A stretch of DNA of 61,974 nt, the filler included, from Dirinaria sp. TL-2023a (taxonomy: Eukaryota), in NCBI GenBank assembly GCA_051941275.1. It is 16 parts of 16 records of this genome, joined end to end, with 100 filler letters (N's around TTAATTAATTAA, not from the genome) between each part and the next. Parts side by side here need not be neighbours in the genome. Positions count along the whole stretch, not along the records: positions 3,945 to 7,760 come from JAVEBF010001960.1; positions 7,861 to 11,667 come from JAVEBF010001961.1; 14 more parts are not named here. One strand, 5' to 3'. The position numbers and the translations under genes were made by a program. Shown here piece after piece: positions 3,845 through 57,272 of the stretch. A model generated the notes under the pieces. That model ran no database searches. It worked only from the letters and a program-made list of their open reading frames with translations, and was not told the DNA's origin. How positions within the stretch are numbered: position 1 is the stretch's first letter; every line of letters begins with the position of its first letter.

Positions 3845-3944
3845 NNNNNNNNNNNNNNNNNNNNNNNNNNNNNNNNNNNNNNNNNNNNTTAATTAATTAA
3901 NNNNNNNNNNNNNNNNNNNNNNNNNNNNNNNNNNNNNNNNNNNN
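3845..3944. other. Artificial contig spacer, first of 15 (others start at 7761, 11668, 15574, 19474, 23369, 27260, 31133, 34999, 38863, 42724, 46582, 50435, 54287, 58136)
   Basis: Identical 100-bp unit N44-TTAATTAATTAA-N44, which has stops in all six frames. The intervening segments decrease monotonically in length. Confidence 0.98.
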
Positions 3945-7380: not shown

Positions 7381-9708
7381 GGTGATTTGGTTTTTTTTGG
7401 TGGTGGGAGGAGGTTATATTAGCGGAGTTAATATGTAGAGCGAATGGTGATGATCGTCGAGTGATCAGAAGCGACTGTAAGTTTTTGCAGAAGACAGACG
7501 ACTTTGCAAATGAGAAGGAGAGAGGGGTTTCTCGTAAGAAGAGTGGATGCAAAGTGGAAATAAAAGGAGAAGGAAGGAGGAGGAATGTAAGAGAAAGGCT
7601 CTTGTTTATCTATGAGCTGCAACGGCACAGTAAGCGTGCCTCAAATTGCCCACACCCACCGCCCATCGTAGCATCTCCACTACCCCCCGCCACTCGCCCT
7701 AGCAACCAATCTGCTCCAATCCCAGCCCGCCTTTCACTTGATTAGCTCTCATCCAGACCCNNNNNNNNNNNNNNNNNNNNNNNNNNNNNNNNNNNNNNNN
7801 NNNNTTAATTAATTAANNNNNNNNNNNNNNNNNNNNNNNNNNNNNNNNNNNNNNNNNNNNGACAGCGTGTGAAGCACTTGATACGACAAAGCAACATAAG
7901 TCTCGTTTTATTCTCGAGTCGCGAGAATAACTAACTCGACAAATCTCTCGACTGAGACTACGTGAATATCGATCGACTCAGACGCAGTTAATTCTTGACG
8001 ATATTTTCAAATACGTTCAAATCATTGAATATTCGAGTTCATTTTATCGAGTCAAGATAATTTAAAAATCATATCGTACTCACGCATGTTCATCGCATGA
8101 AACTCGCAGCGACTTTTCTTGCGAGTTTCAGCGTCATCGATCAATGCGATTGCTAACTCATGAATTTCATAAAAGTTAACACTGCGATTATTCACGACTT
8201 GAACACGTAACGAAAAGAGAGTATTTTCGAGTAACTGAGCGTCTTTAACGAATATTTGCGACACAAAACTTCTCTCAACTCTCGAATCAATAAGACATTT
8301 AATCTCACGAATATCATGAGACGTGTTGACATAAAAAATTCAAATAAAAGTTCTTGATCGTCTTCGAGATGATTTTATCTTTAATGCTGTGACGACAAAC
8401 ATTAGATTTTCGCTTTTTTCGTCTCAGAGTCGCGACGATTTCGTCTCTTCACATACTTTGAGTACTTCGAACACGTAGAGTCGCTAGTATTGTGATCAGA
8501 CTGATCACAAATATAACATCGAACATCGAAAGAAGCGTCAGAAACGCTTTCAGAGACTTCGCTTCGCGAGCGATTCTGAGAGCGATTTTCGCGATCACGA
8601 GAGAAGTTGTTTCGTTCGCTTTTGTCTCGTCTCGCGTGATTCTTTGACTGATTCGATTCGTTTGACGATTTGAAGTTATCATTATTCTCAGTTGCAGCGA
8701 ACGTGTTATCACGTTTTTGCGAGGATTTATTATCTTCACGACTGCTTTTACTCGTGCTGTTATTATTGAAAGAAGTATCAGACTTGTTTAACGATCTCAT
8801 ACTGCGTAAACGATGCTCTATTGTTATATATTCTTGACGCATCTCATTAACATTCTCGTGAGACATGTTGATCGTTTGAGACTCATAACGAATCTTATTC
8901 AAGATCTTGATTCGCAGATGTATAATTTTAATAGCATTCGACGTCTCTCGATTCAATTGATGATACAAGTTTTTCAGATAAATGACAAATTCGTTTACAC
9001 TTTGAGTAAATCGTTGTTTTGTCGATTCGATTTTCATTTCGATTTCAATGATGCGAATCTCGAGCGTGATTAGTCATTCTCGCACGTGAGTAACAAAATG
9101 ATCTCAGATAAAAAGATCTTCAATCTCGCTTGCATGAGTACGTCACTCATCTCGTCGCTTGTCGTTAAATCGAGATGCAGCTCAAGCGATCTTGTGATTC
9201 TCTGTGAGATAATTCAATATATTATCACGAAATCAATTCTCACAGTCTACGAATCAAATGCGAAAATTGTTGATATTGATGACATTCTGCACTCTTGACT
9301 CTTTCACACGAGTGTTCATTTTGCGTTTGTCTCGCACTCTCTCGCGATAATGATTATCGCTATGTTCACGACGATATACGCGAAGACGTTCTTTCGCGAG
9401 CGATGTTTTGACTTCAGCGAGCTCAGCTCTAACTCGTAGAAGTTGCATTTGCATGTTCTCAATCGAAGATTATATCGTAGCTGTCGAAATAACGATAAAA
9501 TTGAATTCATTGTGCGTCGCAGAGACATCGTTAGCTTCGTCTTGCGACGCATTTGCGATGTTATTTTCTTTTTCAGCGACAGTGTTGAGTTGATCATTCG
9601 AGTTCGTGAGTTCTGACGACTTCGAAATATGTCGCTGACGAAGTTGTTGACGTGTCGTGCGATCGCTTTCAGTAAACATCGTTTCATCGAGCAACTTCGT
9701 GCAGACGA

Positions 9709-9720
9709 AGTTATTAGAAT
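9709..9720 (-). promoter_or_regulatory. Putative self-priming primer-binding site
   Basis: ATTCTAATAACT follows the LTR instead of a tRNA-type TGG. Its CTAATAACT is the exact complement of AGTTATTAG at 9873-9865 inside the LTR. Confidence 0.7.
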
Positions 9721-10110
9721 TGTGAGATGAAGAGTCTCGTTTAAGAGAGCTGCGTAGTAGAAACGAAGCTACAGACGAGACACAGACACATCGCGTGAAC
9801 GCGAACGACGATTTTTGCTAACGAGTGCGAGGGACAAAAGAGCAGATTGCTTTTATTGCTAAGACTAATAACTGAGAAGCTCAAAAAAAGTGAGCGACTC
9901 GTTTCTTTATTCAAATACGCTTGCTTTTTCTTTGCTATCTTGATCTCTAAATTCGACCTCGCGCTAGACTCTATCGAAACGCTCTAAACGAGATTGACGT
10001 GGCTCTAACTCGCGCTTCAATAGCAAGCGAGGTCAGTTATCACGAGAGCTATCTTGTCTTTCAAGCAGGCGAGGCTGACGTGCGACGCTCCTGAGGCCAA
10101 AGTCGTCACA
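9721..10110 (-). repeat. 5' LTR (390 bp) of the gypsy element
   Basis: The minus strand begins TGTGA (10110) and ends TCACA (9721). AATAAA at 9857-9852 and an A/T-rich TATA-like stretch near 9915-9903. It lies directly upstream of gag. The second LTR is not in the window. Confidence 0.8.
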
Positions 10111-11667
10111 ATCACGAATAAAACGCTAAAACAGCTTGCACGCGTCGTTTTAACACAGATAAAATTATTGTTCGAGAGATGGATTTAAAAGAGTGTTCAG
10201 TCGACGCATTTCAAAAAAATCGTCATTATAATATTGCGAAAATCGAGCAAAAAAAAATTACACAGATTTCTCAGCATATAAATTTATAGCTTTTCTCGAC
10301 ACATTGAGTAAGACACTAAAATTTATTATCTCGAAACGTCTACGTTACGTCGTCGAGAAACAGAGCACATTATCGAATACGCAGATGAGATTTAAAAAAC
10401 ATCGATCGATGAACACAGCATTATAACTCATAACGAAAAAAGTGCATACGATATAAAACGAAAACAAAAAACGCGTGACATTATTAATAAATTTGAACGT
10501 TTTCGAAACATTCGATAACGTATCGCACGTCAGATTGTTTCACAATATGCGCAAGCGAAAGATATCGACACATCTGTTGACATGAGTGAAAGATTTTCTG
10601 AAGAAACGTCGAATCACACTGACTATTGACGATTACACGCAAACGAAACGTCAAGTGACAATTGAAATATCTCAAAAATCTTCGCTCTCATCGACATTTT
10701 ATTTGTTTTATGACGCAGATTTATTTGAAATGTGCGACGACATACGATTTCGAATTAGTGTTACAGAATTTGTCGACGATATCAACATACTAATTTATAG
10801 CGAGTCGACGAAACGCAATTGTCATCTGTTGAAGAAGATATATGACAAATGCAAACAATGAGCACAGAGACACGACTCAAAATTTTCGAAACGAAAACAC
10901 GAACTGATTCACTTCTCGAGAACTTTCAAAAGATTCAACATGAGCGTCAGCATCAAATTAAATGAAAATGAGATGAAAATCAAATTCGATATCAGAGTGT
11001 TTGAAATGCAACTGAACTCAAAATTGCGATGAAGATTACATCTGCGTGAGATTGAGACGAAACTCGTCGTGAGACACAAAATCACACAAATAATTATCGA
11101 CTTCACATGAGATTCGACAATAACAGCAAACAAACGCATATATTTCGCAGCGTCGCGTTTAGCGATCAGTCACGAAATAATCGTTTGATACACGTCGACG
11201 AATATCAAAAATCATAAAAAGACGATCGATGCGAAATTTCGCTTTATACAAAACAGAGAGTTTCGTCAAATTACAAACGTTTATAAAACGACGTCAACAA
11301 ATACATTACAGATAGAGATCAACACGACGCTCATCGATATTCATCTCAAAAAGCTGTTTCAGAGATCAATAATAAACATGAACGCAAAAGACTGAAAAAA
11401 AAAACGATTGAAACAACGATGACACGCATAAAACGCGATATAAGCTTTAGAAAAAATCGTAAATCAAAGCTCAAAGCGACGTCACTCAAGCTCAAAAAAA
11501 ATAAATGCGTCAAACATTGAGTGAAAAATTTACGTCACGACGACAGATTTGTATCGCGACATCATGAGCGAAGTTTTCGAAAATAGTTATTCAAAATGAG
11601 ACATTAACAATAAAAAATCACAACGCGAACAAATCAAATTCATATTGAAGAATTTACTCGAACGAAA
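10111..11667 (+). mobile_element. Tad-like non-LTR retrotransposon (LINE) ORF2 reverse transcriptase relic, hypermutated
   Basis: Translation with stops and frameshifts gives ILRKSSKK.YTDFSAYKFIAFLDTLSK (ancestral LRKPGK.DY...AYRPIALL.TLGK), TFDNVSHVRL, EISQKSSLSSTFYLFY (ancestral GIPQGSPLSP.LYLFY) and EFVDDINIL (RT active site). Confidence 0.9.
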
Positions 11668-12391
11668 NNNNNNNNNNNNNNNNNNNNNNNNNNNNNNNNN
11701 NNNNNNNNNNNTTAATTAATTAANNNNNNNNNNNNNNNNNNNNNNNNNNNNNNNNNNNNNNNNNNNNCCCCTTCCCGGTGCCCCCTCTCACCTCTGTGCC
11801 TTTCCTGTGCACTGATGATCAAGCACTTGCGACGCCAATGATCGGCTTTTTAATCATACACGTGTACGAGGCATCGAGGCACTGTGCCATTCTGTCTGGG
11901 AGGAAGCACCAATAAAACGGGTGGGCTGTGACTGTGAGCGGAATCATCACGGAGCTGGTGGGAGCATCAGTTCCATTATTCTCACCCAGACCTCGATTTC
12001 CTTGGCTGCTTCATGCCGTGTGCACGGTGCAACTGCAGGCTTCGTCCTTCGTGTTGAAGTGCCTGCATCGTTCGTGCAGATCGCTGGAATATGCGCTTTG
12101 GCGCTCCAATTCCGGCCAAGTCACGTGAAGACGACTGGCCTGGCGAGACTGGGAGCTCCAGTCTTAGCAGTCCTAGCCTTTACCCGAAATGAGCGACCAC
12201 CACCTCACCATGGAGGTAATATAATATCATCACCTTGAGGTCCTGTCGTTGGATGCGAAATGGGATAAGGTACACTGGTCTCATCATAATAAAATTAACT
12301 GTAACAGCATGCTGCAAAGTAAACCTACTGAGCCTTGTTCTACAGAGGCTGTTCATAATCATCAAGCCTGGTGTATCGTGATCGTCTTGTC

Positions 12392-14674
12392 TCATCCATC
12401 AAGTAGCCCTTTCGACGCTTTCTCGCCGCATCTGACTACTTCGCCAACCGCACGCACCAGACTCTCGTCCTTCTTACCGAGCCTTCTCCCCTCGATTTCT
12501 CCCAACAGTCCTCGGACCAGAAGCCGTAGGTTGACTTGTAGGTCCTCGCTTCTCTCTTTCAGCTTCCTTGCCTCTTTCCTATACACCGCCACTGGGTCAT
12601 GGTCTGGAGACGCGGGGCGCAAGCACGAGCTGCCCGCTGTCGAGGTCCGGCCGGGTGTAACAATGCCCAGGGTAGCCAAGGCTTTCGCAGGGATCGAAGA
12701 GACCGACCGAAGAGATGAAGTCGGTGACGGCGTAGATGGGTGTTTGCTGATGGGAGTGGGGCTTGCAAAGCGGCAGGAGGAGATGTAGTTGAGTGCAATG
12801 TATGTAGCCTGGAGAGAATCGAGTAATGCCGCCGGAGCCTGTGGAAAGATGATTCGTAGTGCTGTCGAGGTAGCGTTGTCTCTAGCAGCGGGAAAGCAGG
12901 GCGGAGGACACATTGCGGAAGGCTGAGAGGGATTGACTCTCGAATCCACAGTATTGCCACGATACTGAACACCGCGGTACGTGGGTGCCGACTGCGGTGT
13001 TAGCGAGTGGCTCGAGAGAGGCCTCAACATGGAATAACGGCTATGTGGAGCTGATACCAACGGTGTACGACAAAGAGCCTGTGCAGAGCTTGCACTTGCT
13101 TCATCCAACACGCATATACTTTGGATAATTGGCGAATCGAGGTACAATCTCGCTGTAGGATAATTGTTCAGAGCGGCTTCTAGCTGGCCAACAACGCGTT
13201 CAATCCGATCACTGCTGTCATTGAAGGGGGGTCCCAAGAGGGCTGCTTCGCACGTTCCAGAAGCTGGCGAGACAGGTAGTGCCCGGCGGACAGTGCTCTG
13301 GGCTCGTGGAGTCGAGATCCGCGAAGTCGGCGGTGTATATGGGTAGTCTTGAAGCCTGTCGTGGAGCAATGATTTTTTGTGTGACTGGGCCTTCTCTGCA
13401 GATAAACCCAACCCAACGGATTCCTGAAGGGTGTTTGGCGGCGTTCCATGTTTCCAGCCTGAGTCGAGCTGGCTCTGGTGCTCAGCCGATAGCGGTTTCG
13501 GGGGTGTTACTACCGAATCACGACGCGATATGTTGATCACTTTAGGCTTTGTAGGACTTTGAGTCACAGTCGTGAGATGCTGCTTCCTTGTCAGCAATGG
13601 TTTCCTCCAGGGCCAGAGTCCGCATACGGCTTCTTCGATCTTTTCTTCGCTCCTTGTAGCATCTATCCACAACCTGGGTTTGCTAGGGACTTCTTCATTC
13701 CCATCGCCAGTTCCATCGGACTTACAAGAGCCCACGTGCTGAGTACTCTCCACGGGGTTTTCAACCCAAGGTCTTCTTTTCATGTAGAATGAGCCTGCAC
13801 TACGTCTAAGGCCTTTGGTTCTGGTAATCATGGACCGAGGGTTGGGAAAGATGTTGCTTGCTTTGGCATCCCGTTGGTTGCCAGAGCACAGCTGTGATCG
13901 AAGCCCTTCTCCCAATGATACTGACCGACGCCTGTTCGAATTCTTCATTCGAGGTTGGGCATATGGGAACTGCCGCTCTGTCATACTCTCGTTGTCTTCC
14001 TGGTTGAAAACCTCCTTTGGTGGAAAATCGCACCGATTGCAGTCCGAGATCTTCATCAGAGGCTGCGATGCCGGCCCATCCTGGGAACACAAAGAGTAGG
14101 AACTTTCCAATGTCGAATCGCTAGCATCGCTCGTTGCGGTTTGTGGAGTGAAAGTGATTGGCGATAGTAAGGGCTTCTTAGTGTACAATTGCGTGGTTGT
14201 CGGTCGCTCCTTTACAGAGCCATGGGAAATTTGCGCACCATTAGCTTTTACTTGATTCGATCCATTGAAGAGTACTTTGTGCAAGTTGGCCGATATACGC
14301 CGTGCCTCTGTTTCCTGATCACTATGAAGATTCTTTAGATGATAAGAGAGACCTTTCTCGCTTCTCAACGAAGCCTTTCCCGCGGACCAAGGCCTCGGAA
14401 AGGAGCTTGAGAAGCGAGCATCTTCTTCACGTTTAGGGTATTTCTGCGAGATGTCCGATTTAGGTGGGCTGAGCGGCTTTTGAAGGCCGTCGTAACAAAA
14501 GGAGGGCGCGTCTTGATCGTGATCATATGCGTAACACTCAGCAATGGGAGAAGAATACTTGTGCTTCATGGCGCCATCTTGATGAGATGTAAATGGCATA
14601 GACGTGCTACTGACGGAAGGAGTAGAACAATCCAGGAACGACTGGCCATAAATGCCACCGTGCGCTAGCGCCAT
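12392..14674 (-). CDS. Hypothetical protein, 760 aa, mostly Ser/Pro-rich with a helical C-terminal region
   Basis: Uninterrupted 2.28-kb ORF from ATG. The C-terminal blocks LRIIFPQAPAALLDSLQATYIALNYI and LVRAVGEVVRCGE look ordered. No family recognised. Confidence 0.75.
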   Translation of the reverse strand: MALAHGGIYGQSFLDCSTPSVSSTSMPFTSHQDGAMKHKYSSPIAECYAYDHDQDAPSFCYDGLQKPLSPPKSDISQKYPKREEDARFSSSFPRPWSAGKASLRSEKGLSYHLKNLHSDQETEARRISANLHKVLFNGSNQVKANGAQISHGSVKERPTTTQLYTKKPLLSPITFTPQTATSDASDSTLESSYSLCSQDGPASQPLMKISDCNRCDFPPKEVFNQEDNESMTERQFPYAQPRMKNSNRRRSVSLGEGLRSQLCSGNQRDAKASNIFPNPRSMITRTKGLRRSAGSFYMKRRPWVENPVESTQHVGSCKSDGTGDGNEEVPSKPRLWIDATRSEEKIEEAVCGLWPWRKPLLTRKQHLTTVTQSPTKPKVINISRRDSVVTPPKPLSAEHQSQLDSGWKHGTPPNTLQESVGLGLSAEKAQSHKKSLLHDRLQDYPYTPPTSRISTPRAQSTVRRALPVSPASGTCEAALLGPPFNDSSDRIERVVGQLEAALNNYPTARLYLDSPIIQSICVLDEASASSAQALCRTPLVSAPHSRYSMLRPLSSHSLTPQSAPTYRGVQYRGNTVDSRVNPSQPSAMCPPPCFPAARDNATSTALRIIFPQAPAALLDSLQATYIALNYISSCRFASPTPISKHPSTPSPTSSLRSVSSIPAKALATLGIVTPGRTSTAGSSCLRPASPDHDPVAVYRKEARKLKERSEDLQVNLRLLVRGLLGEIEGRRLGKKDESLVRAVGEVVRCGEKASKGLLDG

Positions 14675-16074
14675 CTCGAGCTGTTTAGTTTAGAAGGAGA
14701 AAGAGATATGAGGGTAGAGAGAAAGAGAGAGTTGTCTTATTTGTCTTGGGAGCCGCCCCTTGAAGGGCACAATTAAAACATATTGACCTAGTAGAAGCAT
14801 TCCACAAGCACATGAGCTGCAGGTCACCCGTGCGGGGCCGTTACCTCACCACGAGGAGACAGTTGGAAGATAGTTCATGCAAGGTAGCATTTAAAGTAAA
14901 AAGGGAGGCTCGCGATACCACGCAGGAGAAAAACGACGTAGAGTCCCTTGCAGTGTCGAAGTGCAAGGCAGGAAGAAAGGCATTGTGTTTTCAGGAGCGC
15001 TGGCTGGAGGTACTCCACTGTTGCGACAGCAGGTCCAGAAGTCATCGCCATCAGAGCATAATTATTCAGCTCATGGCGATCTTGGTGCATACTCATAATA
15101 CAAACAGTAGATGCTCCAGGAAGGGCCCAAAGGACTAGCCAATTTTGTTCCACAAGTTTTTAGGCCGCACGAGTACGTCTTGTAGACTTGTTGGATGATT
15201 GCCTTACAGTATTGTCATTAAATGTTATTGAGATTCGACCTCAATGAGGGTCCAGTCTATACGCATTCATCCTGGCCAATGACTTGATGACTGTAGTAGC
15301 GATTGGTTGCAAGAACAAGATGTCGAAGGAGTGTGAAAGCTACTTTAAGGGTGCCAAAGGAGTTTCCAAAATGCTTTGGAGACTGGCGTGACCATTGAAT
15401 CCATGTCGAGCGCCTCTCTTAAGTCAAAGAAAGATATTACTGATGGTCAAAATTAAGAAAGGGAAGATGCTCAGGATTGGAAGGCACCACTGAGTGTCTG
15501 TGTGTGAGGGAAGGAGCCGAGAGGGATAAGAACTACTCTTGGCACGCTTACCTTAAAGAGCCATCCTCCCACCNNNNNNNNNNNNNNNNNNNNNNNNNNN
15601 NNNNNNNNNNNNNNNNNTTAATTAATTAANNNNNNNNNNNNNNNNNNNNNNNNNNNNNNNNNNNNNNNNNNNNGTGGTACGCCTGCCAAAACCGTTGAAA
15701 GCATTGGTAGATGGGTTGCGAGGCTGAAACCTGAAACGTTCGCCACCTGAAGGACTCGGCATGCCCCAATCACCAAGGAGCCGTGAAGATCAGGCGCCCT
15801 TCAGCATTAAGGCATTTGATTTGCCATCTCCTCCATTTGAAAGTAAATTAATCCCAGAGCCTTGATTGCGTGTGACCCCTCCTCCTTCTCTTCATGCCTC
15901 CCTTTTTTCCCTCCTAGACGAAAAGTCTAGTAGTCTGAATTCCGATTTCTATTACTCGCTTTCCTCCTTTCGGTGACAGGCCAGGTAGAGGAGAAGTGCT
16001 TTCATCTTTGAGTCTCCAACAATCTAATTCGCTAGCGTGACCCTCTACGTCAAATCCCTCACAGTCAGCGGATC

Positions 16075-32053: not shown

Positions 32054-33049
32054 TCATGACACAGTGACATTCGGGGTTGAGGGGAGTCCTGATAGCTTCC
32101 TAAGAGCTTGTGCTCGGAATGAACCTCGAGCTACTACTATGCCGCTCTCCCTGTCCTTGATAGCTATGTTCATCTCCCGGAACATGTTCTCTCTCAACAG
32201 ACTTGCCGGCAGGCCGGCAAAGAAAGATATCATGTCACCCATGGTCATTTGATATTGGGTCTGTTTAACTCGGTTCCAGATCGTTGTCACTTGACTGTCG
32301 AGGGCTTCTTGCCTCACTTGCCACACAGTCAACTGCTCGCGATTTTGCGGAGCAAGCTCCAGCAGTAGCCAGAGCACGATGAAGAAGATATCTCTCCGGT
32401 CGATGCTCTTGCTCAAGAAATCTATTTCGGCTCGCAACTCGTCCTTCGCATTTACCGTGATGCCAGAGCCGATGCCAATGAAGTTGAAAGAGGCACCTGT
32501 ATGATTACTACCCGGATCCGTAAGTCCAATGGACCGCGATTGCTGGAAGCTCGAGTTGCTCTGCCCTGCGACGACATGGAGCAGTTCCGTAGGAAAGAAC
32601 CTTACAATTGCAACGGGCTCCCCGCGATACAATCCAAGAAATTGCGTACTCTGAAAGCGATTATTCTCCAACATAAATCGGACCGTAGAAGTGATGGTCC
32701 ACATTACAAAACGAACACTGACTTTCTGGCCGGTTATGGGTGGGGCTACGATCAGACGGACTTGGGGAAAGTCTTGACGAATCCATGATTGAACGATGAT
32801 TTCGTCCTCAACATGGTGCAGCGCCAATTCGCGCATTGCCATTATCGCCACCATCAGGCATGCTGTCTCTTGAATCAAAGGCCGATACCAGGATGCGACT
32901 GTTGCAAAATCTTCATCTGGCAGATCCGGCAAGTTGGTTAGATTGGATATTTGTCGTGAAGAAAGGTCTGCGACAGCTGGAAGTGACGCAGCAACAGCAA
33001 CAGAAAGGATTGGGGAGAATATAAGAAAATATCGAGGGAATGGTCGCAT
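32054..33049 (-). CDS. Putative secreted protein, 331 aa, unknown family
   Basis: Intronless ORF. The first ATG (33049) gives signal peptide MRPFPRYFLIFSPILSVAVAA. Two similar halves are joined by a Ser/Gly/Asn linker. Confidence 0.8.
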   Translation of the reverse strand: MRPFPRYFLIFSPILSVAVAASLPAVADLSSRQISNLTNLPDLPDEDFATVASWYRPLIQETACLMVAIMAMRELALHHVEDEIIVQSWIRQDFPQVRLIVAPPITGQKVSVRFVMWTITSTVRFMLENNRFQSTQFLGLYRGEPVAIVRFFPTELLHVVAGQSNSSFQQSRSIGLTDPGSNHTGASFNFIGIGSGITVNAKDELRAEIDFLSKSIDRRDIFFIVLWLLLELAPQNREQLTVWQVRQEALDSQVTTIWNRVKQTQYQMTMGDMISFFAGLPASLLRENMFREMNIAIKDRESGIVVARGSFRAQALRKLSGLPSTPNVTVS

Positions 33050-33558
33050 TTTCCTTGATACCAGGCCACGGTATAGAGCGAAGCCAGTATAGACTACCTG
33101 CACCTCAAGCGGTGCTGAGGAGCTCGATGTTAAATACTCTGCCAGAGAGAGCTCCAAGAACGTGACCTGCTTGCCGACATCCCGCTTCGCATGCGATATG
33201 CGACTTCCTAACCCCCACTGTTAATCGGCGCCGCTTTCGCTATATTATGAAGTTGCAGTACTACTAGTACGACTAGCACGAGCTGTGCAAGTTCCTGATC
33301 GTAGTCGAACAAACGTCGATAGCATCGTGAGAAGGCGGTAGCGATGAGCCATTCATCGCGGCAGTATTTTTACCGCTCGCTGCACGTTTTGCTATCCGTC
33401 CTTTTCTCCATCAGTGGTACTCTTAGCAGAGAAATGCTTTCGTTACTCACTATCCTGACTAGGATTGTCTAAAGGTCATCATCCTATCGGCCGGCACTGT
33501 ATGGTTCGTATAGCCAAGCGTTGAGACATTATCACATCGAGACTAGCGCGTGGAACTT

Positions 33559-47025: not shown

Positions 47026-49306
47026 TCACAGCTTGCTGGCACAACAGACCTGGCCGTCGCCCGCGATCTTCCCCTCCACTGACGGCTGCTTATGCTGTTC
47101 GCTCAGCAATGTGCTCCGGTTGATTTCCTGGCGACTGGGCGGTACGTCGAGGGACGGGTTCTTCTCGAAGAAGTTGGTCGGCTTGAAACTGACCCGGATG
47201 ATCTCGCACGGCATGATGGGGAAATCCTCGATTCTCGTACTGTGCTGCAAGCCGAACTGCACAAACAGCACCAGGTCCGTGTCGACAATGTCTTCCTTGC
47301 GATCCGCCCAAGCACGGACTCCGGCCCCTCCTCGGGATTGGTTCGTGTACTTCCCCCCCGCGTACAACTCGCCATCGTGGTAGCGCACGGCGTAGATGTT
47401 GTGATCTGCGAACTCGGCGCGCTTGAAATGGAAGCTGTCGGAATCGGCAATGATCTTTTGGAAAGGAGGAGCAGAGATCTTGTATGCGACCGGTTTACCA
47501 TTGATGGGGTTGCGAACGGAAGCGTTCTGGATCTTGAAAGTTCTGTTAGCGTTATAATCGATGTCGAGACCGGCAGAGGTGGGAACCAGGGTCTCGTCAA
47601 TGGTGTACCCTGTGCCATTCGGATTGAAGTCCGAACGTGGCATTGGGTTCGCTTCTTCGTAGACCAGGCGGTTTTCATGGCCATCTATGGCGGGATCGAC
47701 GCGAAGGGAGAATATATGCTGGTGATGGGAAGCGAGGACGCCGGGATGAACGACGGTGCCCCAGGGTACGGATACTCCTGGGTCGATGGGCTGAGTGCTG
47801 AGGATGCCCGTTGCGCGGACTTCGTAATTCATTTCCCCGGCTTGGTTGAATATGAAGGCCGTGATGTATTCGTAATTGGCGATAGTCATGATAGACTGAA
47901 CAACGAGCTCCCGGTTGCGGACTACAGCTGCTCGGCCAGTACGGTAATTGGTGTGTTTCCAACCAATGCCCGCGTCTTGCTCGTGTATGCAGACGACATT
48001 CTCCATTGGCAAGGGCTCGCCGCAATCATTTGAGAGGATGGCACTCAAGTAGTAGATAGAGCCAAGGCAATCGCAGCCAAGCTTGAGGTTGTTGGCCGTC
48101 ATGCCAGCGCCTGCGTCGCCAAGGTCAAAAGCTGCTTTTCGGTTGAATGGTTTCCTCGGATCAGCATATGGTATATTCATGTCCGACATCGAAAGACGGT
48201 AGAAAAGGCTTCTTCCATCATATCGAACCTACAGAGCCAACTATAAGCGTGCTAAAAGTGTCGAGCAAGGGTGATTGCATACATCGTACAGTACCGGGCC
48301 TTCACGCTGGTTAAAGCCAGCACGGAATGACCATTTCTGCCACTCGACAATCTCCCCCGTTTCACCAGCTTTCGTAATTTGGAAGCTGGCCCCTTCGGGT
48401 TGGACTACATTCAGAGGCTTCAAATCCGTTCTCAGGGTTTGATACTCAGGTGCATATTCGCTGGGTGCAAGAATCTCAACAGGCTCCGGTTCCTTGGAAA
48501 AATGATCCGGGCCCGTAGGCAGGTAGTCGATCCGGGAGACTTTGAGATCCACAGCGTCTATCACAGGGGAAACTGGTAAAGGGAAAGCATAGTGGTTTGA
48601 GTGGACGTCTGATAAATTCCCTGGATCACGCATGTACAAGTATAATTGGAACATGCGCCGGTCATCTTGGATTCCATCGGATCCTAGATCATATTAACAA
48701 TGGTGTCTCGTTGGCGAGTACAAGACTGGGAAGCTCGAACCGTAGGTCCAAGGATCGCTGACGATTGCGGATCCTTCTGGAAGCCCCAATCGGGCGATTT
48801 CTCTTTTGACTCTCTCGTCCTCAAGAGCTATCTTCTCGACCAGGATGATCTCCTCTGCGTCCGCAGCGCCGTGAATGTTTCCGCCAAGCCGAATATTGCT
48901 CTCCACTCGCCTACGGCTCAGGCTGACTACGGCCTCATGGAATTTGTCCTGGACATTTCTGATTCAGCACCTAGTCCTAAAGCGTTCAAATGGTGTATAA
49001 GAATGAGATGTTCGAACTCACAGTGTTGCGGATATAGTAGCAAACAAAGGCCTTCCTGTCAATACTGGGTAGTGCCCGACCATTGTGCTCGGCTTCAAGA
49101 TACGGCACCAATTGGGCCTTCTCTGGCTCTTCTAGGGTGATGGCTTTGAAGTGGAAGTTCGTAGCTGATGGATAGAGACCATGGATCAAGTCTCTGGCCT
49201 GGATGATCTCGGAAGCAGTCAAAGGAGATAAAGGATGTGAGGCAGTACGCTTTACTGCCCCCACCTGAGAGGTAGTGAAAGTACTTGATACTTGGTTGGT
49301 CTCCAT
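47026..49306 (-). CDS. Copper amine oxidase, predicted peroxisomal
   Basis: Multi-exon: HPLSPLTASEI, DPWTYG, NNLKLGCDCLG, TPQ consensus ANYEY, Cu ligands HHQHIFSLR and QHSTRIEDFPIMP, C-terminal PTS1 SKL. Confidence 0.96.
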
Positions 49307-53968: not shown

Positions 53969-55082
53969 GATGAAATCAAACGAGGGTGCGCAATAAGGTT
54001 TGCAATTAGTAAACAACGAGATGATGACATGAGCGAGTGGATGGAGAAGAATTTACAGGAGGTATATAGTGGGAGGGAGCCCGACACGATGGAGCATCGT
54101 CTGCAAAACTCCATCACACAGAGATTAATAGGGCGTATCTGGGTTCAAGAACAGAAGAAATTGCCTAGTGTCGCGCAAGTCGATGGTTGTTTTCAGACGA
54201 AACTGGTCTGGTGCATGGAGCTATTGTCAGAGATCAAGCCATTCCTCAAGCCTCAGGTTACCATTGCCATAATCATGAGCAAGATCNNNNNNNNNNNNNN
54301 NNNNNNNNNNNNNNNNNNNNNNNNNNNNNNTTAATTAATTAANNNNNNNNNNNNNNNNNNNNNNNNNNNNNNNNNNNNNNNNNNNNGCCCCCCCCTCACC
54401 CCTGGTTGTTGCCGCTCACCCAAGACGTCAGGGTCGCGCTCCCTTAAACCCTTTAGTCAATCCGCCGTCATCACTCAACCGGCACCCTTGACTCTTTCTT
54501 ACCTTACCACTATCCTACCCTATCCTATCCTACCCTTACCTTACCTTACTACTACCTTCCTTTACTTTCCCAATACTCCGTACTTTCCCCAACTTCTTTT
54601 GACTCTTTGCGCCCACCCCAGATCGTATGACTTGTAATTTTTGAGCGATTTTTCCGACTTCTTCAGGTGTTGCGATCTCTTCCAACACCTTGTAATCATT
54701 CGCTCGCGTCTTCTTGGTCTTCATTCTGCCCGGTCTTTACCACCACGCCTTGCGCCTTCCGTCGACACCCCCGAGTACAGTCCACCACTCCACACAGACC
54801 CCCACCTGTCGTTAGCATTCACCAAGTTGAGCAACATAAGGTAGTCAGGACGGCCTTTCTACTTGACTCATCTCGAACTTTTCACACGTGTCCCACGACA
54901 CTTCTATCGAAAAGGCTGTGCCCCTAAAGTCAAATAGGTGTATAGTGTTTATATCCTGCAGGGCAGTGATCGGAATTCGCTCACAGTTCAATGCGCAAGG
55001 CCGCTTGTGAACTTCCAGCAAAGCACCGTGACCGCACTTCCAGTCAGATCTTTACCTTGCGGCCGTGGCCGTGTCGCATGGC

Positions 55083-57272
55083 ATGTTTCTACTCCCTTGG
55101 AGTAGTGGGACGGGGAGCGACAAGGTTCTACCAAGGGAGGGAAAGGTCCCAACAACAAAACCTCGGACATCTCCCGTCATACAAATACCCCTCCTAAACA
55201 AAGCGAAGAGAAAAAGGGAGAGCGATGGAACAGGAAATGAAAATGCTGAGATAAGGCCAATAAAGAGACGGACGCCAGAGGAGGCTCCCCACATCCCAAA
55301 GGTTCCAGCAAACATGGGTGTTCTTGTCTCGCCAGCTCCAAACTTTTCGCAAGGTAACAACGATTCTCCATCACCCAGACCAAGGAATAGCGTCGGGAAA
55401 TCCGCCGATGTGAGTCATGTTGGAAGTGGCCAGAACGCCTCTATCCCAGAGACTTCTCCAGAGCAAACTATGCTCAAAAATCAAGACTGTAAAAAAATTC
55501 CAAGATCTCTAGGTGAGCCTGACAGCAGCCTCGACCTTGAGAAACGCAATAAGAGTGCTGATATGCGTAAAGATCCTGGAACACTTACCAAGCTGCAACA
55601 AACCATCGAATCGCAATTCAACCTTGAGATCCTGCTCAAACATCGCGAACTGCGTCTAATAGACCAGGAGCTTGCGAAGTGTCAGATAGCTTTAGAGCAG
55701 CTTCAACGATGCCATGTGATGCCTTATCCAGCAACAACATCGGATCCAACAACAATGTCCACCGTCAGTCAAGGCGCGGGACCATCCTACAAGAGTGAAG
55801 CTGAGCATGCGCCGCCTTGGGGTGTGACTGAAGGCCCATACTCTCGACACTATGCCAAGTGGCTGATACCGGATCCAGCTTTTGGAGATGACACTTCCGA
55901 CGAATCACAACTGCGTGGAAGTGGCAAAGGCTTGCCCGAGCGAACCAGCCGAGGCGGCAAATTCCAAAGGGCCACTGGTGGGATGTCCTCCCGTGCTCAG
56001 CGAGGCTCCGCTCGGGAAAGGTTGCAAGCCTTGCCTCACGGATACCCCGAACCAAAGGAAAACAAAGGACCGATGATTGTGAAGCGTTCTACTGATGGCC
56101 AGATGGTGAAGCTAGTGTGTCTAGATTGTCGTCGAGAAGACTTCAACAGTGCTCAAGGATTCATCAATCACTGTCGGATTGCTCACAGTCGAGGATTCGC
56201 GAGCCATGATGCGGCTGCCATTGCATGTGGTGAAGAAACCGAGGTGGATCCTGCAAGTGGTCCAATAGGAGAGGGTCCTAGCTCCGCCAGTGCTAGCGCG
56301 GGTCTAGTACACCCTCTTATTAGGTCTGCTCATTTGACACGGACAAATCCTACGGTCGCGACGCCTCTTTCAAAGAAGGGGTCAGAGCACCGTGATCGTA
56401 GGAGTTCAGAACGCAACACTCGCCATGCTGGTTCAGTCGGCGTATCTAGCACGCGGAAACCAGGCGCTGTGCTTTCAGCGGCCAGCGAAAAGAACGAAAC
56501 TCCATTCAAACCCTCTCCTCACACTCCTCATCTCTCTGCTTTATATGCAAGAAGTGGATTAGGTGGAGATCTAGATGAGATGGTTACGGAAGCTACGAAG
56601 AAACAGGAGCCTGAGACCCCACTTCCCGATGACGATGAGGAAGATGACCAGGAAATGGAGGAGGCCCCTGAGCACATGGTCGGACACCACACGCTGGGCA
56701 CTCGTGGGTTGTTGAGGGGTGGAGGGCGTCTTCCAGCTCGATCTGGTCTTTCTCCCGCACCGATGCAACGGACGCCGAGCAACAAGAGCACCAGTACTAC
56801 TCATCGAAAGCCTGGGCATCTCCACACGTCTTTACCCAACACAAGCGATTCTTATCACTACAACGGCCCAATTTTGGCTGAAGCAACCCAAAGCTATAAC
56901 CATCACTCAACTCACCACGATCACAGCCCATCAGATACAAATCAAACCTTGAATCTTAGTCCCAACACCATCGAATCTCATCCTGCGCCCAGTCTAGTCT
57001 TCGACGACGAAGATTATCAGAACACGCATTCCGACTCCGACTTACCTAGCTCAGGTGCCGTGTCCGAGGACGATGACTCTTTGGATGTGGAAGTCAAAGA
57101 GCACGACCAGCACGACCAGCATGCCATGGATATTGACGAGACGGCCGAGTCATCTACTGCTGATTTTGGCTTGGAGAAGGCGGGCCATGGCCAACGGCCG
57201 AGGCATAATAGAGAAGCAGCTGCGAGTCAGCCGAGAAGACCCCGAGCAAGGGCGAGAAAGGGTGGGAAATAA
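55083..57272 (+). CDS. Ahc1-like protein (ADA histone acetyltransferase complex component) with C2H2 finger
   Basis: Intronless. QFNLEILLKHRELRLIDQELAKCQIALEQL coiled coil, GPYSRHYAKWL, and VKLVCLDCRREDFNSAQGFINHCRIAH. Confidence 0.85.
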   Translation: MFLLPWSSGTGSDKVLPREGKVPTTKPRTSPVIQIPLLNKAKRKRESDGTGNENAEIRPIKRRTPEEAPHIPKVPANMGVLVSPAPNFSQGNNDSPSPRPRNSVGKSADVSHVGSGQNASIPETSPEQTMLKNQDCKKIPRSLGEPDSSLDLEKRNKSADMRKDPGTLTKLQQTIESQFNLEILLKHRELRLIDQELAKCQIALEQLQRCHVMPYPATTSDPTTMSTVSQGAGPSYKSEAEHAPPWGVTEGPYSRHYAKWLIPDPAFGDDTSDESQLRGSGKGLPERTSRGGKFQRATGGMSSRAQRGSARERLQALPHGYPEPKENKGPMIVKRSTDGQMVKLVCLDCRREDFNSAQGFINHCRIAHSRGFASHDAAAIACGEETEVDPASGPIGEGPSSASASAGLVHPLIRSAHLTRTNPTVATPLSKKGSEHRDRRSSERNTRHAGSVGVSSTRKPGAVLSAASEKNETPFKPSPHTPHLSALYARSGLGGDLDEMVTEATKKQEPETPLPDDDEEDDQEMEEAPEHMVGHHTLGTRGLLRGGGRLPARSGLSPAPMQRTPSNKSTSTTHRKPGHLHTSLPNTSDSYHYNGPILAEATQSYNHHSTHHDHSPSDTNQTLNLSPNTIESHPAPSLVFDDEDYQNTHSDSDLPSSGAVSEDDDSLDVEVKEHDQHDQHAMDIDETAESSTADFGLEKAGHGQRPRHNREAAASQPRRPRARARKGGK

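Follow-up and report, generated by a model that had tools for sequence, protein, structure and literature searches.

The window analysed here is a stretch of 61,974 nucleotides from Dirinaria sp. TL-2023a (assembly GCA_051941275.1), in which 16 separate contigs of 3739–3844 bp each are arranged in size order and joined by spacers composed of 44 N, TTAATTAATTAA and a further 44 N. Since the window is a chain of separate contigs, loci that neighbour each other in it are not physically linked. Coordinates 7861–11667 correspond to exactly one whole contig, the third (3,807 bp), and this contig is made up of two relics of retroelements in head-to-head arrangement: a long terminal repeat (LTR) retrotransposon relic and a relic of a reverse transcriptase (RT) resembling those of long interspersed nuclear elements (LINEs). 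The dinucleotides CC and GG are almost missing from it. The original prediction, made from the sequence alone, had explained this state by hypermutation of transposable elements (TEs) in an unusual context, cytosine followed by cytosine (CpC). The features of the contig and its borders are the following.

3845-3944, 7761-7860, 11668-11767, then every ~3.9 kb: spacers between contigs
7861..11667, no strand: CC/GG-poor contig, GC content 0.377, bounded by N/TTAATTAATTAA spacers
8232..8378, minus strand: start of an aspartic protease (P0028 residues 343-391, frame -2, E 1e-5)
8408..9679, minus strand: gag relic with a Cys/His zinc knuckle (tblastn of P0016 residues 1-417)
9957..10181, no strand: partly spared island with 9 of the 12 surviving CC/GG, at the junction of the elements and the start (5′) of the truncated LINE
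10111..11530, plus strand: 5′-truncated LINE-like RT relic (frame 1, 10111-10254; frame 2, 10250-11530)

Both ends of the contig fall within TE-derived sequence. The blastn and tblastx searches revealed no similarity between this contig and the other 15, and the Rfam search gave no match anywhere in the window.

The minus-strand relic was recognised with the protein P0016, an unmutated gag relative of 418 amino acids (aa) that contains 38 Gly, 17 Pro and 7 Trp. Residues 1–417 of P0016 were aligned by tblastn to 9679–8408 in a single high-scoring segment pair in frame −3 (E 8e-75), and the alignment takes in the CxxCxxxxHxxxxxxC motif; the nearest Atlas clusters carry Retrotrans_gag/zf-CCHC. 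The Pfam search with the mutated gag open reading frame (ORF) itself gave no match, and the homologue search from P0016 found no match but P0016 itself. The gag ORF at 8402–9073 (minus strand) is 223 aa long from stop to stop and contains no Gly, Pro or Trp; counted from its first Met, it is the 211-aa gag piece lacking these residues that the original prediction had pointed out. The prediction had also assigned TGA stops to likely Trp sites, and all six in-frame stops at aligned gag positions are TGA, five of them opposite a Trp of P0016. In the protease start, the DSG motif, expected to have become DSR, indeed reads DSR (GAT TCG AGA) at 8288–8280 on the minus strand, and the translation is CLIDSRVERSFVSQ in the contig versus GLIDSGAERNFVSQ in P0028. 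Judging from these alignments, the minus-strand relic comprises the gag of an LTR retrotransposon and, after it, the first part of its protease.

The plus-strand relic aligns with residues 682–1098 of P0009 (tblastn, E 3e-76), and residues 482–528 and 528–706 of P0047, a relative of normal composition, also align to it (E 4e-14). The similarity of the RT ORF to RVT_1 is weak (E 0.013, under the Pfam cut-off); the relatives of the relic carry PF00078 and PF14529. The copy begins at approximately residue 636 of 1269 and the endonuclease part is absent, and its start resembles a 5′-truncated LINE insertion. The motif EISQKSSLSS, followed by FVDD, is located at 10664–10693; the proposed derivation of this motif from GIPQGSPLSP agrees with the finding, a PQGSP-type motif having given SQKSS. 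The RT frame is interrupted by 8 TGA and 4 TAA stops, and it changes once, near 10250 (within 10188–10254). This frame change is the only indel-type lesion detected in the coding region of either element. The tblastn assignments, LTR gag/protease and non-LTR RT, bear out the earlier statement that two unrelated classes of TE are affected.

Base composition predicts 142.3 CC and 128.7 GG dinucleotides for the contig, and 3 and 9 were observed, respectively, that is, 12 in total versus approximately 271 (Poisson P ~7e-98); 2000 mononucleotide shuffles gave a mean CC+GG count of 270.7 and a minimum of 228. The observed-to-expected ratio (o/e) of CC+GG in 200-bp windows inside the contig (n = 72) has a median of 0 and a maximum of 0.38, none of the 1074 windows outside the contig falls below 0.42, and the ratio is normal (0.84–1.10) in each of the other 15 contigs. 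CA (261; o/e 1.07) and TG (195; 0.96) are not depleted, CG is abundant (290; 2.14), TC (319; 1.49) and GA (355; 1.52) are enriched and TA is low (206; 0.56). The most enriched trinucleotide pair is TCG+CGA, with 274 occurrences versus 84 expected (o/e 3.25, the other contigs averaging 1.09). These counts reproduce what the original prediction had described by eye, the near-loss of CC and GG over 3.8 kb with CA/TG and CG remaining abundant, and the dinucleotide comparison with the other contigs, suggested there as a check, shows that within the 16-contig window the depletion is restricted to 7861–11667.

The ratio (CpC+GpG)/(TpC+GpA), an unused index of RIPCAL, is 0.018 in the contig versus 0.61–1.07 in the other contigs. 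The published CpA-based criteria for repeat-induced point mutation (RIP) fail to flag the contig, since TpA/ApT is 0.57 (the criterion quoted in PMC2621366 is at least 0.89) and the second index, (CpA+TpG)/(ApC+GpT), is 1.05; under-calling by indices of this kind had been anticipated.

The twelve surviving CC/GG are located at 8723, 9831, 9832, 9957, 10001, 10031, 10068, 10073, 10090, 10095, 10097 and 10181. This list agrees with the exceptions noticed earlier, namely 8723, 9831 and 10181 plus one island, which lies at 9957–10097. The window 9951–10150 has a GC content of 0.51 and contains 8 CC+GG versus 25.6 expected. CC is followed by T in 9 of the 12 survivors and is part of CCTC in 6 (binomial P ~0.002, for sites most of which are clustered and which are not independent); the +2/+3 context may slow the mutator at these positions. 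Four of the CCTC survivors (8723, 9831, 10031 and 10073) represent the same plus-strand hexamer, GCGAGG. As a speculation, the partial sparing of the LINE copy near its 5′ end would fit a homology-dependent process, because the 5′ parts of LINEs are common to fewer copies.

The direction of the change was approached along four lines, which agree: a composition model, the fates of codons relative to unmutated relatives, a partly mutated relative and the nature of the stops. Exhaustive in silico replacement of CC by TC (GG by GA) in the other 15 contigs yields a GC content of 0.38, versus 0.377 observed, and predicts o/e values of 1.71 for TC/GA, 1.54 for CG and 0.47 for TA, with a root-mean-square distance to the observed profile of 0.23; the alternative replacement, CC>CT, gives a distance of 0.53 and wrongly predicts enrichment of CT/AG and GC dinucleotides. 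Not one of 34 Gly positions of P0016 is still Gly in the contig gag, the codons now being GAN (13), AAN (9), AGN (4) and other (8), and not one of 15 Pro positions is still Pro (5 TCN, 2 CTN, 8 other). Five of the seven Trp positions are TGA, and CAA/CAG is found at 8 of the 19 Gln positions and TAA/TAG at 0 of the 19. In the comparison of the RT relic with P0047, 10 Gly positions have become 4 GAN, 3 AAN, 2 AGN and 1 other, and 10 Pro positions 3 TCN, 2 TTN and 5 other. Relative to the sister copy P0001, the RT relic has stops at six of seven 'Trp' positions, keeps Gln at 9 of 12 positions and has TAA at one.

The partly mutated copy P0008, whose alignment with its sisters was read by eye, still has 12 Pro, and the sisters have Ser at 11 of these positions and Leu/Phe at one; at its five surviving Gly, the sister copies without exception have Asp, Glu, Arg or Ser. 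The other differences between P0008 and the sisters are transitions (Ala/Val, Thr/Ile, Ser/Phe, Arg/Lys, Asp/Asn). The combination of Pro>Ser with Gly>Asp/Glu means that the changed base is the C preceding another C, and the only stop that a CC>TC process can create is TGA, from TGG. Taken together, the codon and composition evidence supports CpC>TpC, with the 5′ C as the target, on both strands. A weaker second target is supported as well: (CT+AG)/(TT+AA) is 0.47, versus 0.68 ± 0.06 in the model with CC>TC only, and changes of P0001 relative to the contig DNA were counted at 11 of 98 CpT sites, 6 of 165 CpA sites and 6 of 180 CpG sites, these counts being crude, confined to single-transition, non-synonymous changes and dependent on an assumed direction. 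CpT is this second target, and CpA and CpG are largely spared.

Searches with protein sequences of the two relics and with P0009 show that the contig is not a singular case. All five matches of the RT piece (75–43% identity) have 0–1 Gly and 0–3 Pro, and 18 of the 19 P0009 matches have at most one Gly and at most three Pro in 698–1269 residues. These 18 cover several subfamilies at 46–93% identity; the one normal P0009 match has 60 Gly and 95 Pro and is 22% identical. Six of the 15 gag matches contain no Gly or Pro. The depleted relatives come from ENA, NCBI and JGI/IMG records, so the signature is not peculiar to this assembly.

Three of the relatives, P0003, P0008 and P0009, present an apparent contradiction of GG>GA, since their open frame of 1269 aa contains 27 Trp. 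The original prediction had named intact copies of the same CC-free composition as a finding that would speak against it, and these 1269-aa proteins look like such copies; they are, however, best explained by TGA having been read as Trp. P0006 and P0007, two standard-code JGI/IMG gene models without Trp that are located on the same two contigs, coincide exactly with the longest interval free of Trp (541–750) and end one residue before 'W750', and one 'W' of P0001 sits opposite CGA in the contig DNA, as CGA>TGA predicts. The 27 'Trp' of P0003, P0008 and P0009 are, on this sequence evidence, very probably TGA codons translated as Trp by the gene caller, and the possibility that these 1269-aa ORFs represent intact, active CC-free elements was rejected on the strength of the P0006/P0007 boundaries and the R>'W' change opposite CGA. 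As a caveat, some fragments listed in JGI/IMG (P0004, P0005 and P0010–15) also contain W; either the caller behind them at times read TGA as Trp, or they retain a few TGG. If the explanation is right, each of these relatives has 27 TGA among its 1269 codons, lacks TAA/TAG and frameshifts and keeps 50–51 Gln codons intact, which would be a strikingly pure CpC signature. Because the process creates only TGA stops, gene callers that allow TGA=Trp turn its relics into long false 'proteins' without Gly and Pro. Public protein collections do hold such long Gly/Pro-free 'proteins', which are hypermutated LINE relics.

A RIP-like mutator that acts at the DNA level, targets TEs and converts C to T with the specificity CpC >> CpT >> CpA, CpG is, in our judgement, a fairly probable cause of these observations. 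Both dead retrotransposon fragments would have been driven to saturation by C-to-T hypermutation of DNA, the preferred target being the 5′ cytosine of CpC (CpC>TpC, or GpG>GpA on the other strand). The mutator would work on both strands, make substitutions and not indels, and leave the adjoining gene-bearing contigs alone; within the window, only the TE contig among the 16 is affected, and related copies exist in public data. In this it would behave like RIP, a genome defence that inactivates transposons, with a dinucleotide preference opposite to those on record. Repetitiveness or heterochromatin would presumably be the trigger. The enzyme may be a base-flipping, DNA-methyltransferase-like one, as is suggested by the fact that the 3′ neighbour sets the specificity. 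From the interpretation given in the original prediction, CpC>TpC on both strands, some CpT and the two retroelement classes hold, while its repeat-directed system with a divergent methyltransferase is retained here in this conditional form.

Slow decay would account for several of the same features. If heterochromatic TEs carried non-CG methylation at CpC and CpT, spontaneous deamination of 5-methylcytosine would, with no active mutator, also yield C>T on both strands, limited to silenced TEs and with a specificity set by the 3′ neighbour. This course of events seems unlikely, since about 96% of the expected CC/GG are gone and yet the sequences are otherwise hardly damaged: gag and RT can each be aligned over 417 residues within one frame, and the relatives hold 1269 codons without TAA/TAG or frameshift, with their 50–51 Gln codons. 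Moreover, CpG, the usual target of methylation decay, is fully preserved in the contig (o/e 2.14). With such long stretches still in frame, a fast mutator is more plausible than slow decay.

Alternatively, an AID/APOBEC-type cytidine deaminase might have edited single-stranded complementary DNA (cDNA) of the retroelements, with the mutated copies integrating afterwards. Integrated hypermutated retroelements are a known result of such editing, both of the elements affected here are retroelements, and the contig offers no DNA transposon or plain repeat showing that a cDNA stage is unnecessary. We consider this course quite unlikely. The coding strand of both elements shows C>T as well as G>A, seen as Pro>Ser together with Gly>Asp/Glu, and the depletion is nearly symmetrical, with CC 0 and GG 3 in the LTR part and CC 0 and GG 0 in the LINE part; in the unsaturated P0008, too, the numbers of retained Pro (12) and Gly (5) are of similar extent, whereas editing of cDNA would be expected to leave a strongly one-stranded pattern. 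The strand symmetry and the presence of both types of change argue for action on double-stranded genomic DNA and not on one cDNA strand. AID/APOBEC deaminases read the 5′ neighbour, while in the contig family the 3′ neighbour (C or T) sets the specificity and the CC>CT model, corresponding to the APOBEC3G (A3G) type, fits badly. Editing of cDNA would, in addition, need near-full saturation within one retrotransposition cycle.

It is very improbable that the contig is foreign, i.e., a contaminant from a genome with a general CC/GG deficit, or an artefact of sequencing, assembly or library preparation, even though it is a short contig with no link to the others and the search of public sequencing runs listed none that contains it. 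That the CC-free state is a derived one is indicated by TGA in place of Trp, the replacement of catalytic and structural Gly/Pro (DSG>DSR, the change of the PQGSP-type motif to SQKSS) and the existence of unmutated relatives, and no functional proteome could do without Gly, Pro and Trp. The same signature in records of three different sources speaks against an artefact, the preserved reading frame excludes homopolymer-type errors, and the neighbouring contigs, when mutated in silico, reproduce the GC content of the contig. Ultraviolet-type dipyrimidine damage, which mainly follows the 5′ neighbour, was rejected since it would not pick out one contig, and avoidance of CC as an adaptation of an active element was rejected since the coding capacity has been destroyed.

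Several points weigh against the proposed DNA-level mutator. The CC/GG-poor contig has no physical tie to the gene contigs that adjoin it in the window, and neither a DNA-methyltransferase nor a deaminase domain turned up in the ORFs of the window. Only retroelements have been seen to be affected, and the class of the victims, taken by itself, leaves room for targeting of reverse-transcription intermediates. The spectrum is drawn from protein-level comparisons and composition models, not from a copy-by-copy DNA alignment; neither of two metagenome scans found DNA of a relative, nor did a viral and a prokaryote-genome scan. The observed o/e values for CG (2.14) and CT/AG (0.87) depart from those of the CC>TC model (1.54 and 1.13), so ancestral composition or further targets must be invoked. 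Finally, in about half of the Gly codons that mutated, the first G is gone as well (AAN/AGN), in some of them after T or C; possible reasons are that the 3′ C of CC is a further target or that the low-complexity, Gly-rich tail is not reliably aligned.

The other contigs of the window encode proteins of eukaryotic type, including a SET+PHD protein, RCC1 repeats, a copper amine oxidase, a major facilitator superfamily (MFS) transporter, a family 2 glycosyltransferase (GT2) and others. The host is likely a fungus, as far as can be inferred from the encoded proteins. The best solved relative of the amine oxidase is the chain 3loy_A, named 'copper amine oxidase' (E 1e-113), which we take to be a yeast enzyme; the search output names no organism. 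The split of the amine oxidase would fit a short spliceosomal intron, or else a frameshift. This gene and three long ORFs without an assigned Pfam family are located as follows.

47029-48228 and 48244-48693, minus strand: copper amine oxidase domain, divided over neighbouring ORFs that differ in frame (Pfam profile positions 53-407 and 1-41)
12395-14689, minus strand: ORF of 765 aa without a Pfam family at E <= 1e-5
55032-57269, plus strand: ORF of 746 aa without a Pfam family at E <= 1e-5
32057-33220, minus strand: ORF of 388 aa without a Pfam family at E <= 1e-5

Going beyond the spectrum itself, we tentatively suggest that the contig may record an undescribed defence mutator of a fungal or fungus-like lineage, one that would act on double-stranded transposon DNA and deaminate the 5′ C of CpC almost completely, that of CpT less often, and hardly any C outside these contexts. 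Such a mutator could be a homologue of the RID-like methyltransferases with a re-tuned neighbour specificity, or a new deaminase of double-stranded DNA. If it exists, RIP-like defence would be commoner, and its specificities more diverse, than is thought. A CpC-specific process escapes the CpA-based RIP indices, and surveys of which fungi possess RIP may therefore be biased. The cleanness of the signature, with its near-100% conversion of CpC, would make the specificity of the enzyme easy to assay once the genome is available and would provide a useful comparison for the reading of neighbouring bases by RID-like enzymes and deaminases of double-stranded DNA.

Among the known systems, the process proposed here shares a number of features with classical RIP as found in Neurospora crassa and other Pezizomycotina: only C:G>T:A transitions are made, on both strands and without indels, whole transposon copies are saturated and nearby genes are untouched. 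As in RIP dependent on RID and DIM-2, the 3′ neighbour of the cytosine sets the specificity. Both RID and DIM-2 prefer CpA in Neurospora (bioRxiv 10.1101/344036). Classical RIP, with its preference for CpA, raises TpA/ApT and makes TAA/TAG stops, whereas the contig spares CpA, has a TpA/ApT of 0.57 and has stops at none of the 19 gag Gln positions. RIPCAL has CpC>TpC as a formal class, one of the four that are possible, and the paper reports no fungus with CpC dominance (PMC2621366). Our full-text literature search found no report of a CpC-dominant RIP-like process; subscription journals, which include, e.g., surveys of RIP context in ascomycetes, are mostly outside such a search, and an earlier description is possible.

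CpA is the context in most Pezizomycotina, but RIP-like C-to-T hypermutation of TEs outside the CpA context has precedents, which the contig resembles in this respect: a TpCpG pattern in the Pucciniomycotina genera Microbotryum, Puccinia, Melampsora and Rhodotorula (PMC3318451), CpG/CpA contexts in the Aspergillus MATE element and a CpG bias in Rhizoctonia (PMC2621366, PMC4014442). The processes in Pucciniomycotina, Aspergillus MATE and Rhizoctonia destroy TCG or CpG, whereas the contig is enriched in both (TCG+CGA o/e 3.25, CpG 2.14). Editing of cDNA of the A3G type (GG>AG on the plus strand) shares with the contig the recognition of CC and retroelements as victims. A3G acts on a single strand, where it deaminates the 3′ C of CC; in the contig family, unlike this, the target is the 5′ C (Pro>Ser at 11 of 12 positions, and Gly>Asp/Glu), both strands are affected and CC>CT fits poorly. 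RIP-type hypermutation itself is already known, and what would be new in the contig is the preference for CpC, which differs from the known fungal CpA and TCG patterns.

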